Made by a program: the position numbers and the translations under genes. The notes below the pieces were generated by a model. It saw only the letters and a list, made by a program, of their open reading frames with translations. It was not told where the DNA came from and made no database searches. A DNA stretch of 62,750 nt, the filler included. It is 3 parts of 3 records of this genome, joined end to end, with 100 filler letters (N's around TTAATTAATTAA, not from the genome) between each part and the next. Parts side by side here need not be neighbours in the genome. Positions count along the whole stretch, not along the records: positions 1 to 26,899 come from SRR22947727_249; 2 more parts are not named here. One strand, 5' to 3'. Shown one piece after another: positions 11,912 to 16,830 of the stretch. Position 1 is the stretch's first letter. Every line of letters starts with the position of its first letter.

Positions 11912-14899
11912 ATGCAGCTAAATCATATAAAACTATCAGGTTTTAAAAGTTTCGTAGATCCAACGAAGATATCTTTTCCGACAAATTTAGTGGGTGTGGT
12001 GGGGCCTAACGGTTGCGGCAAGTCTAATGTTATTGATGCTGTTAGATGGGTTCTTGGAGAACTATCTGCAAAAAATCTTCGTGGCGAATCTATGGTCGAC
12101 GTTATTTTTAATGGATCTGAAAATAGAAAACCATCTGGGCAATGCAGTATCGAGCTATTATTTGATAACTCAAGTGGAAAAATTGGTGGCGAATACGCTT
12201 CATTCAATGAAATTTCGATTAAAAGAGTTATGACTAGAGATGCTCAATCCACCTATTTTATTAACAGCACAAAATGTAGAAGAAAAGATGTTCAAGACAT
12301 ATTTTTAGGAACGGGACTAGGCCCAAGCTCATATGCAATTATTGAACAAGGCATGGTTAGTAAATTAGTAAGCGCCAAGCCTGAAGAGTTAAGAACCCAT
12401 ATTGAAGAGGCTGCTGGAGTTTCAAAGTATAGAGAAAGAAGAAGAGAAACTGAGAGCAGAATCAAAAAAACTAAAGAAAATTTATCTAGAGTTAAAGATA
12501 TTAAAGATGAGATTGAGAGGTTAATCAGAAGGCTCGAAAATCAAGCAAATGCTGCAGAAAAATATAATCAATTTAAAAAAGATGAAAGTCAGAAGCAAAC
12601 TGATATTGCAATACTATACTCACTTGAGGCTAAAAATAATCGAGATAAACTTCAAAAAAATCTTGATGCGTTAAATAGAGATTTAAAAATCAAGCAGGCT
12701 GAGTCAGATTCAAAACAAGCTCAAATTGATGAACATAGAACACAAAATGCTTCTGTTGTAGATGCATATGAAAATGCTCAAAAAAACTTCTATTCGATAG
12801 GTGCTGAAATAGCTAAATATGAATCGGACCTTCAAAATGTTAGCAAATTAGAAATTTCTAATACAGATGCTCTCGAAAGAGCAAAAACAAGCTATCAAGA
12901 TGCTGTTGAAAAAGAATCAAGCTTTAAGGATTTAAGCCCTAAAGAAAAAGAATTAAAGCTAGATATCGCTATTGTGAAAGCTCTTGACGCTCTTAAGCAA
13001 AAAAGCATTATTGATGTCTTAGTAGATCCCTTAGAAGAAAAAATTGCTCAAAAACAACATGAACTCGACTCAAAACAAAATATTGTAGATGCAGTTAAAG
13101 CAGACCAGACTGAGATTACTGAAGAAATTAAAATTCTTCAACAACAAAAATATTCTATTGAGGCTGATATTGCAAGACTTGAAGGGGCACTTCAGAACCT
13201 CAATAAGATAGAAGAGAACGCAAGATTAGATTTTGAGAAAGCAAGCAGTAATTATTCTGATGCATTGCAAAAAGAGGCTAATAGCGAACACTTAACTCCA
13301 AAAGAAAAAGCTATTCATTTACTTGATTCTATTACCGAACTATTAAAAGCATTTGGCTCCAAAGCAGATTCATTAAACTCCAAGGTTCATGAGTTAAAAG
13401 CACTGCTAATAAATATTCTTAAAATTGCATCAGATCAATCTAAAAATTATACAGCTGATTTTTTGAATAGAAAGAATCAGCTAGAAGACCTTATCAAAAC
13501 AACATCTGAAGATGCATTGTCTAAAAATAAAGAATTATCTGAGTTAAAAGAAAAGAATATAAAAATTAAAAATGAATTGGACTCTAGGTTGGAAAACCAG
13601 TTTAATGTTGATGAAAAAATTCGAGACTTAGATAGCAGCAAATCATTAGTATCGAATGAGCTGCGAAGTTTAGAAAAGAATATTTCTGATTACAGGCTTG
13701 AGTTAAGAACGCACGAGATTAATCTAGAAAATGCTTCCATGGTATTGGATAAAGCTGGTATAAGTTTATCTGAACTAGATTCATCTAAGTATGCAAGAGC
13801 AGATCTTGCAAGCCTAGAGAACTCACTTGATGAGATTCAAAAAAATATTGCTGAATTAGGGTCATTTAACCTAGCTTCATCGGAGGAATATTTAGAAAGA
13901 CAAAAAGAGCTTAATAATATGATTTCAGATGGCAAGGCTAAAAAACTTGAAATTCAAAAAGTTATGTCAGATCTTGTTGAAAAAAGCTCTATTGCTGAAT
14001 CAAAATTAACTGACATTAGACAAAAGCAGTCAGAATTTAATAACAGTTTAAGAGAATTAGAAAATCAAAAGTCTATTGCTGATCTAGATTTAAAAGCCAT
14101 TGGTGAGAAGGTTACCAACCTTAGACTTGAGCTTAAAACCCATGAAATAAATTTAGATAATGCTAATACTAAAATTGCAGAATCTGGAGTAAATATAGAA
14201 AATATTGATTTTTCAAAGTATGAAAATATGGATATTAATGAGTTGCAGAATAGTCTGACAGACATCCAAGCTAAAATTATTCGTCTTGGAGCAATTAACT
14301 TAGCAGCTCCTGAAGAAATTGCATCCGAATCAAAAAGAAAAGAAGAATTAGATATTCAGTATAATGACTTAACCGAGGCCCTTGAAAAGCTTACTGGAGC
14401 TATCAAAACAATTGATATAGAAACAAAGACAAGATTTCAAGATAGCTTTGATGCTATTAATAATAGAATGAAAGAGGTATTCTCAAAATTATTTGGTGGT
14501 GGTATAGCTGAGTTAGCTTTGACTGAGGATGATGCATTAAATGCTGGTGTGGTTATTATGGCAAGGCCTCCAGGTAAGAAAAATTCTTCTATTTCACAAT
14601 TATCTGGTGGTGAAAAAGCTTTAACTGCTTTAGCACTAGTTTTTGCAATATTTGAACTTAATCCTGCACCATTTTGTATATTAGATGAGGTAGATGCTCC
14701 TCTTGATGATCTAAATACGATGCGTTTTATAAACATGGTTGAAGAGATGTCAAAAACAGTCCAATTTATATTTATAACTCATAACAAAGTATCAATGGAA
14801 AAGAGTGATTATTTGATGGGTGTAACAATGCAGGAGGCCGGTGTTTCAAGAATGGTATCCGTTGATGTAAATCAAGCATTAGAATTTGCTGAGGCCTGA
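11912..14899 (+). CDS. smc: Chromosome segregation SMC ATPase (atypical: no recognisable hinge, duplicated arms)
   Basis: GFKSF, Walker A GPNGCGKSN, IIEQG, EEAAG, LGAINLAA, LSGGE, ILDEVDAPLDD, FIFITHNK; located upstream of zipA. Confidence 0.93.
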   Translation: MQLNHIKLSGFKSFVDPTKISFPTNLVGVVGPNGCGKSNVIDAVRWVLGELSAKNLRGESMVDVIFNGSENRKPSGQCSIELLFDNSSGKIGGEYASFNEISIKRVMTRDAQSTYFINSTKCRRKDVQDIFLGTGLGPSSYAIIEQGMVSKLVSAKPEELRTHIEEAAGVSKYRERRRETESRIKKTKENLSRVKDIKDEIERLIRRLENQANAAEKYNQFKKDESQKQTDIAILYSLEAKNNRDKLQKNLDALNRDLKIKQAESDSKQAQIDEHRTQNASVVDAYENAQKNFYSIGAEIAKYESDLQNVSKLEISNTDALERAKTSYQDAVEKESSFKDLSPKEKELKLDIAIVKALDALKQKSIIDVLVDPLEEKIAQKQHELDSKQNIVDAVKADQTEITEEIKILQQQKYSIEADIARLEGALQNLNKIEENARLDFEKASSNYSDALQKEANSEHLTPKEKAIHLLDSITELLKAFGSKADSLNSKVHELKALLINILKIASDQSKNYTADFLNRKNQLEDLIKTTSEDALSKNKELSELKEKNIKIKNELDSRLENQFNVDEKIRDLDSSKSLVSNELRSLEKNISDYRLELRTHEINLENASMVLDKAGISLSELDSSKYARADLASLENSLDEIQKNIAELGSFNLASSEEYLERQKELNNMISDGKAKKLEIQKVMSDLVEKSSIAESKLTDIRQKQSEFNNSLRELENQKSIADLDLKAIGEKVTNLRLELKTHEINLDNANTKIAESGVNIENIDFSKYENMDINELQNSLTDIQAKIIRLGAINLAAPEEIASESKRKEELDIQYNDLTEALEKLTGAIKTIDIETKTRFQDSFDAINNRMKEVFSKLFGGGIAELALTEDDALNAGVVIMARPPGKKNSSISQLSGGEKALTALALVFAIFELNPAPFCILDEVDAPLDDLNTMRFINMVEEMSKTVQFIFITHNKVSMEKSDYLMGVTMQEAGVSRMVSVDVNQALEFAEA
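12590..13309 (+). repeat. Tandem 120-aa (360-nt) protein-level duplication in the SMC N-terminal arm
   Basis: DIAI at 12602/12962, YSIGAEIA/YSIEADIA at 12791/13151 and SPKEK/TPKEK at 12935/13295 all show a 360-nt offset. End points are approximate. Confidence 0.85.
13457..14314 (+). repeat. Tandem 143-aa (429-nt) protein-level duplication in the SMC C-terminal arm
   Basis: DFLNRK/EYLERQ at 13457/13886, RLELRTHEINL/RLELKTHEINL at 13694/14123 and LGSFNLA/LGAINLA at 13856/14285 all show a 429-nt offset. Confidence 0.88.
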
Positions 14900-15528
14900 T
14901 GGAACAAAATATTGATATATATCTGATTGGTTTATCTGTTCTAATTTTCTTAATTATTACATTTCTATTCATAAGAAAAATTTCAAGCTCTGGAGAGCTA
15001 AAGGTAAAAATTGAACCTGTTACAGATTCTTTTGAGATCAAAGAGATAGATGAAATAGAGATAAAATCACAAAAAGCCTTTGACTTTAATGAGCATGATA
15101 TTGAATATGAAGAACAAAAACTTGTTGTCCTTAATTTAATATCTAACGATAAATCTATTTTTGATATCGACCAAATATATGGGTTTATGAAAAATTCAAA
15201 TGCTTTTCTTACTAACGGTTTTTTTGTAATTAAAGATACAAATAATAAAGAGTCATTTCGTATAGCAAATGCTTTAAATCCTGGCACTTTTGAAAATGAA
15301 ACAGAAACTTTTGCCATTCTTTTGGCAGCAGATTTGAACAACGTATCTAATCCATTGAGTTCAGTTAAAGAAATGGTAAATTTTGCTTATCAGTTCTCTG
15401 AAAAATTTTATGCAAATATATGTGATCAAGAAAGAATGCCTATAACAAAACAAATGATTTCACATATTGAATCACAAGCACAGGAAATTATGAGATTAAA
15501 ACAGCTCAGTGGTTTAGAAAATAAATAA
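14899..15528 (+). CDS. zipA: Cell division protein ZipA (compact)
   Basis: N-terminal TM anchor, acidic linker and a C-terminal FtsZ-binding-like domain (LVVLNLIS, FRIANALNPGTF); canonical position after smc. Confidence 0.75.
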   Translation: MEQNIDIYLIGLSVLIFLIITFLFIRKISSSGELKVKIEPVTDSFEIKEIDEIEIKSQKAFDFNEHDIEYEEQKLVVLNLISNDKSIFDIDQIYGFMKNSNAFLTNGFFVIKDTNNKESFRIANALNPGTFENETETFAILLAADLNNVSNPLSSVKEMVNFAYQFSEKFYANICDQERMPITKQMISHIESQAQEIMRLKQLSGLENK

Positions 15529-15546: not shown

Positions 15547-16830
15547 ATGAAACCCTGGAAAATAATTCAGAAATTAGAAAGTGACAATAGTAGGTTATTT
15601 AAAGAAGGCGTTATAGAAGATAATCTTCATGATATTGTTTTACAAGAGGGGTTATCAATGTGTTTAGATGCCTTGGTAACATTTGGGGTTAAACAAGTTC
15701 CTGAATCTAATGATGATGGAAAAGGACTTGATTGGAATAAATTTAATTCATCTGCACAGCTTTTAATAATGAGAGAGAGAACTGGCCATGCTGCTAGAGA
15801 TGAAATTTTGCATTTAATGTCTCTAGCTACTTCAGAGCAATGGAATGATTGGTATAGAAGAATTTTAATTAAGGATCTCAGATGTGGAGTAAGCCAGAAA
15901 ACAGTCAATAATGTTTCAAAAAAAATGGGATTAAAATATAGCGTACCTGTTTTCTCATGCATGTTAGCTCATGATGGCGCCAAGCATCCAAAAAAAATTC
16001 AAGGAAGATGTCTCGTTGAATATAAATATGATGGAGTTAGAGTCATAGCTATTACAAAAAACAATAGCACAACTCTTTATAGCAGGAATGGAAAAATTTT
16101 AGGTAATTTTCCTCATATAGAAGATGCATTAAATAAAAAAGAATTTAATAATTTAGTATTTGATGGAGAAGTGGTCAGTGATGACTTTCAGTCTCTTATG
16201 AAGCAGGTACATCGAAAAACTAATGCTAAAACTGATGATGCTTATCTAGCTCTATTCGACATAATTCCTTTAGAGGAATTTAATAAAGGTAAAAGTAAGC
16301 TCAATAGTCTAGAAAGAAAAGATTTGCTTGATGATCTATCAAAAAATTTCAACTCTTGTATTAAACCGGTTGAATATGTAATCTTAGATTTTGATACCGA
16401 AGATGGCCAAAAAACATTTTCAGGTATGAATAAGAAAGCCTTAGAAGAGGGTTATGAAGGCTTAATGATTAAACCAATTAACGATATATACGAATCTAAA
16501 AGAAGTCACGCTTGGCTTAAGATAAAACCTTTTATAGAAGTTACTCTAAAGGTCACTCAAATTCAAGAAGGTACTGGCAAGCATGAGGGTAAGCTTGGAG
16601 CATTTTCAGTTGAAGGAGAGGACGATGGTAAGTTTTTCTCTTTGAGTGTTGGAAGTGGTCTCACAGACGACGATAGAGAAAAATTTTGGAGCGCTAGAGA
16701 TTCTTTAATAGGCCAATTAATTGAAATCAGAGCCGATGCTATAACTCAAAGTATTGAAGGAGAGCACTTCAGCTTAAGATTCCCTCGTTTTAAAACTTTT
16801 AGAGGCTTTGAACCAGGCGAAAAAATCTAA
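15547..16830 (+). CDS. ATP-dependent DNA ligase with N-terminal DNA-binding domain
   Basis: Motif I EYKYDGVR, YSRNGK, III FDGEV, IIIa ALFDI, IV EGLMIK, V WLKIK, VI SLRFPRF. No signal peptide, Zn finger or BRCT domain. Confidence 0.93.
   Translation: MKPWKIIQKLESDNSRLFKEGVIEDNLHDIVLQEGLSMCLDALVTFGVKQVPESNDDGKGLDWNKFNSSAQLLIMRERTGHAARDEILHLMSLATSEQWNDWYRRILIKDLRCGVSQKTVNNVSKKMGLKYSVPVFSCMLAHDGAKHPKKIQGRCLVEYKYDGVRVIAITKNNSTTLYSRNGKILGNFPHIEDALNKKEFNNLVFDGEVVSDDFQSLMKQVHRKTNAKTDDAYLALFDIIPLEEFNKGKSKLNSLERKDLLDDLSKNFNSCIKPVEYVILDFDTEDGQKTFSGMNKKALEEGYEGLMIKPINDIYESKRSHAWLKIKPFIEVTLKVTQIQEGTGKHEGKLGAFSVEGEDDGKFFSLSVGSGLTDDDREKFWSARDSLIGQLIEIRADAITQSIEGEHFSLRFPRFKTFRGFEPGEKI

Follow-up and report, generated by a model that had tools for sequence, protein, structure and literature searches.

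How does a long antiparallel coiled coil grow, and must its two strands extend together? The question is raised by the gene smc in a stretch of DNA of 62,750 nucleotides (nt), hereafter the window, which joins three parts of three records of one genome end to end with filler between them and whose positions 1 to 26,899 come from SRR22947727_249. The host is a SAR86-type marine gammaproteobacterium, and the gene encodes the Smc subunit of its Smc–ScpAB complex, one of the SMC family (for structural maintenance of chromosomes). Its product of 995 amino acids (aa) has no hinge at the end of its arm, and that arm has very probably been lengthened by two matched tandem duplications, which would have placed a new inner module between an older outer module and the tip. 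A preliminary description of this DNA had already pointed to a 120-aa repeat in the N-terminal arm (360-nt offset) and a 143-aa repeat in the C-terminal arm (429-nt offset), one on each side of the apex; both are present, with a 48-aa single-copy tip between them. The gene and its product are laid out as follows, in positions of the window.

11912..14899, plus strand: open reading frame (ORF) of smc, a hinge-less Smc of 995 aa plus stop (ORF list, Pfam, NCBIfam).
11912..12418, plus strand: N-terminal half of the ATPase head, aa 1–169, with GPNGCGKS, which we take to be Walker A, at aa 31 and a structural match to heads.
12419..12589, plus strand: head-proximal N strand of the arm, aa 170–226, single copy; helical from aa 170, no similarity at offset 120.
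12590..12949, plus strand: U1, outer copy of the 120-aa N-strand unit, aa 227–346, ending in the kink LSPKEK.
12950..13309, plus strand: U2, inner copy of the N-strand unit, aa 347–466, ending in a second kink, LTPKEK.
13310..13453, plus strand: single-copy tip, aa 467–514; helix, 5-residue loop (481–485), helix, no globular hinge and no CxxC (DSSP of the model).
13454..13882, plus strand: V1, inner copy of the 143-aa C-strand unit, aa 515–657, with loop 615–631, helix 632–650 and LGSFNLAS.
13883..14311, plus strand: V2, outer copy of the C-strand unit, aa 658–800, with loop 758–774, helix 775–792 and LGAINLAA.
14312..14896, plus strand: C strand next to the head, then the head's C-terminal half, aa 801–995, with LSGGEK at aa 897 and ILDEVDA at aa 923, presumably the signature and Walker B motifs.

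First, do the repeats stand above the similarity that one coiled coil bears to another? A BLOSUM62 scan of every ungapped diagonal of the 995-aa product gives a score of 257 at an offset of 143 aa (aa 516–665 against 659–808, 50 of 150 residues identical) and of 213 at an offset of 120 aa (aa 199–365 against 319–485, 50/167 identical), while the next best self-diagonal reaches 80. When the arm (aa 170–830) is shuffled residue by residue 200 times, the best diagonal averages 48.6 ± 5.7 and never exceeds 74, and 200 shuffles that keep each position modulo 7, and hence the heptad phase, yield 49.7 ± 6.3 with a maximum of 73. BLASTP aligns the N-strand copies U1 and U2 without gaps over 116 residues (41 identical, E 8e-19) and the C-strand copies V1 and V2 over 142 (47 identical, likewise gap-free, E 3e-25). 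In DNA the copies are 51.7% identical over the 360 nt of the N unit and 47.8% over the 429 nt of the C unit, against an in-frame background of 35.7 ± 2.0% (maximum 41.7%). Copies that share only 48–52% of their nucleotides mark the duplication as old and diverged; the preliminary description had likewise held that it is no echo of assembly. The motif LGxxNLA does occur twice, at aa 649 (LGSFNLAS) and at aa 792 (LGAINLAA).

The borders of the units were set from block-wise identity in seven long orthologues together with the junction sequences, and they place the N units at aa 227–346 and 347–466, the single-copy segment at 467–514 and the C units at 515–657 and 658–800, both repeats being gap-free and in frame. 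At the N junction the sequence runs to SPKEK and then restarts with ELKL(D/N)IAI; at the C junction it runs to NLA(S/A)(S/P)(E/D)EY and restarts with (D/E)(F/Y)L.R(K/Q)N. The preliminary description had delimited the repeats at 12590–14314, that is aa 227–801, which is essentially exact when set beside the junction-derived limits of aa 227 and 800. An overhang of similarity of 20 aa recurs at aa 221–240, 341–360 and 461–480, in other words as similar short sequences at the ends of the N units, and these may have mediated the duplication. As a separate observation, two single-copy short forms of genus g18 (L041 and L042, 727 aa) have their best self-diagonal within aa 195–309 at an offset of 120 as well, with weak scores of 59 and 40; this faint signal may reflect similar unit-end sequences that could have seeded a duplication.

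Second, what did the arm look like without the added copies? Among 229 genomes of the same order with at least 70% completeness, 205 contain a match at E ≤ 1e-30 (104 of 118 in family f1, which includes the host's relatives with long arms, 42 of 45 in f3, 34 of 40 in f2 and 25 of 26 in f4). A single colinear full-length match, which we call the long form, is found in 35 of the 205 and is confined to four of 21 genera (g1 with 21 genomes, g12 with seven, one of them cut by a contig end, g13 with four and g14 with three); its distribution is patchy, and two of the four genera hold long and short forms side by side. In the remaining matched genomes the query is matched in two separate pieces, aa 1 to ~350 and ~657 to 994, and the open frames listed for those of f1 measure 729–747 aa. 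We extracted 52 orthologues, making 53 sequences with the window's own, and their lengths are discrete: 995–996 aa for the long form, 727–733 for the f1 short form, 733–734 in f4, 810 in f3 and 821–827 in f2. The three other families and most genera of f1 possess a short, hinge-less Smc. The earlier expectation that removing one copy of each repeat would leave a protein of about 732 aa agrees with the single-copy f1 orthologues, 995 − 732 being 263, or 120 + 143, and across the order the lengths fall into separate classes (727–734, 810, 821–827 and 995–996 aa), with no form carrying one duplication seen.

A repeat scan of 45 of these sequences, with eight near-identical g1 rows left out, detects both repeats in 17 of 17 long orthologues from four genera (scores 158–396), in none of 18 short f1 sequences (best diagonal at most 62) and in none of 10 sequences of the other families (at most 95). 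Frames of ~852 or 875 aa, as expected from one duplication, are absent from the rows listed in the order-wide survey and from the best 150 of 32,584 matches in a representative library at 50% identity; that library has one 995-aa cluster and one 732-aa cluster. The homologue listing contains, as near-relatives, only 995-aa proteins at 78–99% identity, in many metagenome clusters, and the Smc of the nearest genome, G001, is 100% identical as listed and 99.6% by BLASTP.

Which copies are the old ones? Short and long forms align at offset 0 over aa 1 to ~340, at +120 through the tip (short 341–400 to long 461–520) and at +263 over short aa 421–732; the short arm therefore consists of the outer copies and the tip, to which the long form has added U2 and V1. 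In keeping with these registers, U1 is 70–85% identical to the equivalent positions of short orthologues and also aligns to canonical Smc, V2 is 65–100% identical to short orthologues at offset 263, and the tip (aa 467–514) matches short-form aa 347–394 at offset 120 and shows no similarity to the rest of the long arm at offset 120 or 143. A canonical gammaproteobacterial Smc of 1155 aa (P0128) aligns only to aa 1–306 and 665–995 of the window's protein, the latter corresponding to its aa 829–1155, which identifies the outer copies as the orthologous ones; its distal arm and hinge (its aa 307–828) have no counterpart in the SAR86 Smc. Within g13 and g14, the heads of long and short forms are 87–95% identical. 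Four relatives of deviant length (990, 906, 1003 and 941 aa) were considered as instances of the same phenomenon and set aside, having no comparable repeats (best diagonal at most 89). Two of them from other lineages, P0134 (990 aa) and P0232 (1003 aa), have a Pfam hinge match at E 1e-5 and 5e-12, while P0224 (906 aa) and P0269 (941 aa) have none; with such mixed outcomes, Smc classes shorter than the canonical ~1160 aa are heterogeneous.

Third, how would the extra copies fit into the arm? AlphaFold2 models were built from 20-sequence alignments, with a mean predicted local distance difference test score (pLDDT) of 69.5 for the long form and 72.8 for a short form of genus g17, and both are helical between the heads. 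The model termini form one head, so the chain folds back. That head resembles solved SMC heads (Z 19–22; 6qj1 at Z 21.7, and 3zgx_A at Z 19.3 with a root-mean-square deviation of 4.9 over 322 aligned residues). In the short form, a helix at 171–339 is followed by a kink (340–342), a helix (343–360), the tip loop (361–365) and a returning strand of helix 366–494, loop 495–511, helix 512–529, loop 530–535 and helix 536–598. The long form is helical over aa 170–861, no loop exceeding 17 residues, and has a single tip loop of five (481–485); its kink is doubled (335–342 and 457–462), as is the loop–helix–loop of its C strand (615–631, helix 632–650, 651–656; and 758–774, helix 775–792, 793–799).

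In the short form the segments that were duplicated lie in one and the same part of the arm, as its partner strands, and for that reason the long form has an extra inner module of some 110–119 helical residues per strand. The N strand has 297 helical residues in the long model and 187 in the short (a gain of 110), and the C strand 329 and 210 (a gain of 119); the loops found only in the C strand measure 17 and 6 residues, and their sum of 23 equals the difference between 143 and 120. Counted from head to tip, the mean strand length is ~211 residues in the short form and ~344 in the long. From these segment lengths, U2 would face V1 within ~3 residues of the register of the single units in the short form, counted from the tip, and the duplicated N kink would probably lie opposite the duplicated C loop at mid-arm. 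The suggestion that the copies pair in register thus fits the helix accounting of two models, and it draws on segment lengths and not on coordinates.

Taken together, these observations suggest a course of events in which the lineage first lost the hinge and the distal part of the Smc arm, leaving an antiparallel helical hairpin. Two separate in-frame tandem duplications would then have added 120 aa to the outgoing strand and 143 aa to the returning strand, on either side of the 48-aa tip, and the new inner module, U2 paired with V1, would have become stacked between the outer module by the head (U1 with V2) and the old tip. An α-helix rises ~0.15 nm per residue. Each strand would have gained ~110–119 helical residues, roughly 16–18 nm, with the mismatch of 23 aa between the units absorbed by the two loops (17 + 6 residues) that only the C strand possesses. 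The mean strand would thereby have passed from ~211 to ~344 residues, approximately the length of a canonical Smc arm, and the complex would presumably still be a DNA-organising ATPase with a functionally tuned arm length.

Is the protein indeed an Smc, and does it lack a hinge? The bacterial Smc model TIGR02168 (SMC_prok_B) scores 852.8 bits over the whole 995-aa protein, above its cut-off of 567.35, and in Pfam SMC_N matches at 1.2e-51 (175.7 bits, cut-off 40), all other hits being to related P-loop models; the three motifs at aa 31, 897 and 923 are those of a split ATP-binding cassette (ABC) ATPase head. The RecN model TIGR00634 yields 29.2 bits against a cut-off of 407.85, and the Rad50 models 46–58 bits against 700–1087, so that neither RecN nor Rad50/SbcC describes this protein. 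No CxxC, the signature of a zinc hook, occurs in the window's Smc or in the arms of any of the 53 sequences. ScpA and ScpB (PF02616 and PF04079, above cut-offs) are encoded in five of five genomes tested, with long and with short forms, including G001 and G019, both long. The Pfam hinge PF06470 has no match in the 995-aa protein at E ≤ 0.01, nor in any of 57 genomes of the order with at least 90% completeness. The same model also missed a control genome of Caulobacter, in which ScpA was found, and the 1155-aa P0128 at E ≤ 0.001. Given this insensitivity, the missing match should not by itself be taken as proof of hinge loss in Proteobacteria, and the case for a missing hinge is carried mainly by the all-helical models and by a tip of 48 aa.

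Several points weigh against the duplication of a hinge-less arm as we describe it. The null result with PF06470 is weak evidence for hinge loss. The predicted template modelling scores (pTM) of the two models are 0.34 and 0.37, and we infer the pairing register from DSSP segment lengths. The step (120/143 raw, ~110–119 helical residues) amounts to 1.1–1.3 times the 91–99-aa period published for Smc arms and is no whole multiple of it, and the short-form mean of ~211 residues falls between the published modes of 163 and 238. The evidence for ScpAB comes from the nearest genome, G001, in which 29% of the 31-letter words sampled from the window recur. Finally, the proposal supplies no mode of dimerisation for an Smc without a hinge; two copies of the tip region (aa 436–535), when predicted together in a run without controls, scored 0.02, the mark being 0.32, which speaks neither for nor against dimerisation at the tip.

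Fourth, when did the arm grow, and has it also shrunk? In nine close pairs of long orthologues, the ratio of nonsynonymous to synonymous substitution rates (dN/dS; dS is saturated in a number of cells) is 0.03–0.20 in the inner units (U2 0.03–0.20, V1 0.06–0.16 where dS could be estimated), 0.01–0.11 in the outer units and 0.00–0.03 in the heads; the inner module is under purifying selection and changes at about twice the rate of the outer. In a tree built from the head halves (392 columns, 53 rows) the long form occupies three places, namely g1+g12, part of g14 and part of g13, and its well-supported branches force at least three changes between short and long. In a careful tree of arm modules (263 columns, 50 rows; nine near-identical g1 rows and 10 rows of other families left out), the 16 inner modules fall together in a single clade (support 100/99) and the outer modules join the single modules of their own genus. 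With 16/16 inner modules in one clade, the double duplication arose once. Three approximately unbiased (AU) tests reject none of the alternative placements, and hence two histories are retained, an early gain followed by reversion or the spread of a cassette.

It is possible that the double duplication happened at or near the base of f1 and that the short f1 forms are revertants, which would have lost U2 and V1 many times independently by unequal recombination, and we give this history close to even credence. The internal order of the inner clade, (g13,(g14,(g12,g1))), mirrors the genus tree, and an inner clade at the f1 root, with g13, g15 and g18 held together, is not rejected (AU p 0.162). 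Moreover, the points at which short and long forms switch lie, in three genera, within the blocks in which the copies resemble each other most (aa 291–350 and 511–530), the exact length returns automatically once a tandem unit is deleted, and the alternative, exchange between arms that are 45–60% identical, seems mechanistically hard. The cost is at least ~6 double deletions on the head tree, with no half-deleted form seen, and the inner modules of all four genera are nearer to the g13 arm (36–47% identity) than to their own outer modules (27–39%), which counts against this history. The ratio of inner to outer branch lengths, summed over the careful tree, also speaks against an early gain, being 2.5–2.9 within genera and 0.61 between the g13 and g1 crowns; this is only a hint, as saturation may compress the deep branches of the faster inner module.

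Alternatively, the duplication may have taken place in the g13 lineage, from which a cassette of U2, tip and V1 would have spread by recombination to the ancestors of g14 and of g1+g12, the other short forms being ancestral. We regard this as a serious candidate that on balance is somewhat improbable. In its favour, all inner modules are closest to g13 arms, and the inner clade attaches next to g13 (91/73 in the careful tree, 95* in a quick tree). A tree of the 100-aa tip region likewise groups all 16 long rows with the short rows of g13 and g14 and excludes g17 (86/84), the stems between genera within the inner clade are short, and only ~3 events are needed. The conflicts with the genus tree are nonetheless not significant, neither when g1, g12 and g17 are held together in the tip region (AU p 0.216) nor when the inner clade is held with the outer modules of long g13 forms (p 0.084). 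In addition, the path to the f1 root is shortest for g13, and this by itself could mimic closeness. Since the genus tree is followed by heads and outer modules alike, any crossovers must have lain within arm DNA that is poorly conserved.

Could a single event have lengthened both strands? Had the entire distal hairpin (N strand, tip and C strand) been copied into its own tip, a single step would account for the joint growth of the strands and the missing intermediates. We consider this very unlikely: it predicts adjacent pairs of repeats and a duplicated tip, the two junctions instead have separate borders, and aa 481–510 are single-copy, with 2–3 identities per 10-residue block over seven sequences at offset 120/143. 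That the repeats are generic coiled-coil similarity or an artefact of assembly can for practical purposes be discounted, background diagonals reaching 80 in the window's Smc and 115 in its relatives against repeat scores of 213–257, with gap-free alignments at the E values given above, copies half-diverged in DNA, and the same architecture in 35 genomes of four genera and in many 995-aa metagenome clusters.

Returning to the two matched duplications, the preliminary description had cast them as the coordinated re-extension of a minimal, hinge-less ancestor. Since the other families and most f1 genera have short forms, and the outer copies align to canonical Smc, the lengthening of a minimal ancestor is the best reading at the level of the order; that the events were coordinated follows only from the lack of intermediates. 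Within f1, judging from the sequences, short forms may be either ancestral or revertants. More tentatively, and with the balance of probability against it, f1 may hold a long-lived, switchable dimorphism of arm length, in which an inner module of ~263 aa would several times have been gained or lost as one unit, in some cases inside a genus, toggling each strand between ~211 and ~344 residues with no viable intermediate. The second loop–helix–loop of the C strand, opposite the proline kink of the N strand, would then create a discontinuity at mid-arm, where canonical SMCs have their elbow. If this were true, nature would have repeated an arm-length experiment in a hinge-free background, and arm length would be an adaptive, quantised trait.

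On the 5′ side of smc lie cytochrome-c maturation genes, and directly 3′ a ZipA homologue and then a DNA ligase:

14899–15528, plus strand: ZipA homologue, short at 209 aa (ZipA_C 8.9e-14), beginning at the smc stop codon.
15547–16830, plus strand: DNA ligase of the ATP-dependent type (Pfam DNA_ligase_A_M and DNA_ligase_OB_2).

With zipA beginning at the smc stop codon, the gammaproteobacterial order smc–zipA–ligase is kept, and beyond SAR86 the next relatives belong to Cellvibrionaceae, Porticoccus, Halieaceae and Alcanivorax, whose Smc genes are canonical (~1160 aa). The adenylation domain of NAD-dependent ligase (PF01653) was found in none of three genomes of family f1 (90–94% complete) and in both of two genomes of families f3 and f4, ~1 kb from smc; it looks as if LigA of family f1 had been replaced in place by the ATP-dependent ligase. 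Elsewhere in the window, between 38000 and 48000, G+C content falls to 20–24%, yet the genes there (lpxB, lpxI, lpxA-like, lpxD, Omp85/BamA-type, dxr, cdsA, uppS, pyrH-like and tsf) are ordinary housekeeping genes, and the stretch is therefore not an island.

Why does this matter? SMC complexes fold chromosomes across every domain of life, and the conserved, apparently quantised length of their arms and the role of the hinge are two questions on which the SAR86 proteins bear. An abundant, uncultured marine lineage offers natural, selected and otherwise near-identical pairs of hinge-less Smc that differ by one duplicated module. Such long and short pairs lend themselves, as they stand, to structural and single-molecule tests of the rules of arm length, and to asking whether the two strands have to extend together and by what means an Smc without a hinge dimerises and holds DNA. 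More generally, matched tandem duplications of partner strands provide a route by which long antiparallel coiled coils can grow. A search of full-text literature returned no description of matched duplications in SMC arms and none that links SAR86 with structural maintenance of chromosomes; to what is published, the present analysis adds the exact borders of the units, the accounting of 120 against 143 by loops, the finding that the inner module arose once and the occurrence of long and short forms side by side in one genus.

How, then, does this arm compare with known systems? RecN and Rad50/SbcC resemble it in combining a head with an antiparallel coiled coil that lacks the SMC hinge; the SAR86 Smc differs in scoring far under the cut-offs of those families, in having no CxxC and in the presence of the kleisin partners ScpA and ScpB. 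Another parallel is environmental cluster 9, the abundant hinge-less SMCs of the ocean, assigned to Actinobacteria and, in the excerpts of that study, taken for genuine variants of SMC and not for Rad50/SbcC (Sussfeld et al., 2025, Environ Microbiome 20:65; PMC12153180). Like the SAR86 protein, members of this cluster as there described are marine and have neither hinge nor CxxC; unlike it, they were assigned to Actinobacteria, and the text on the cluster contained in the excerpts mentions no arm duplications and no dimorphism of short and long forms.

Engineered Smc arms offer an experimental parallel. As excerpted, Burmann et al. (2017, Mol Cell 65:861; PMC5344682) give 344 aa for the wild-type Bacillus arm, natural modes of 238, 341 and 515 aa, a functional arm-length period of 91 aa and a super-helical period of ~99 aa, and report that resized arms ("Mini-Smc", and Smc with a zinc hook) were tolerated only in discrete length regimes. 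The SAR86 order similarly displays discrete natural length classes with nothing seen between them; its arms differ from those excerpted constructs in being natural, in bearing neither hinge nor hook at the tip and in a step of 120/143 rather than a period of 91 aa. The long-form strand mean of ~344 residues is close to the excerpted 344 aa of Bacillus, an approximate match because head boundaries are defined differently in that work. With Smc–ScpAB of the Bacillus subtilis type (TIGR02168; PDB 3ZGX, 5XG3) the likeness lies in the split head (40–41% identity to Bacillus head chains, Z 18.6–19.3), the antiparallel helical arm, the ScpA and ScpB encoded in the genome and a TIGR02168 score above cut-off. 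Where the canonical arm ends in a hinge, however, that of SAR86 ends in two helices joined by a 5-residue loop, and about one third of it is an internal copy of the head-proximal module.

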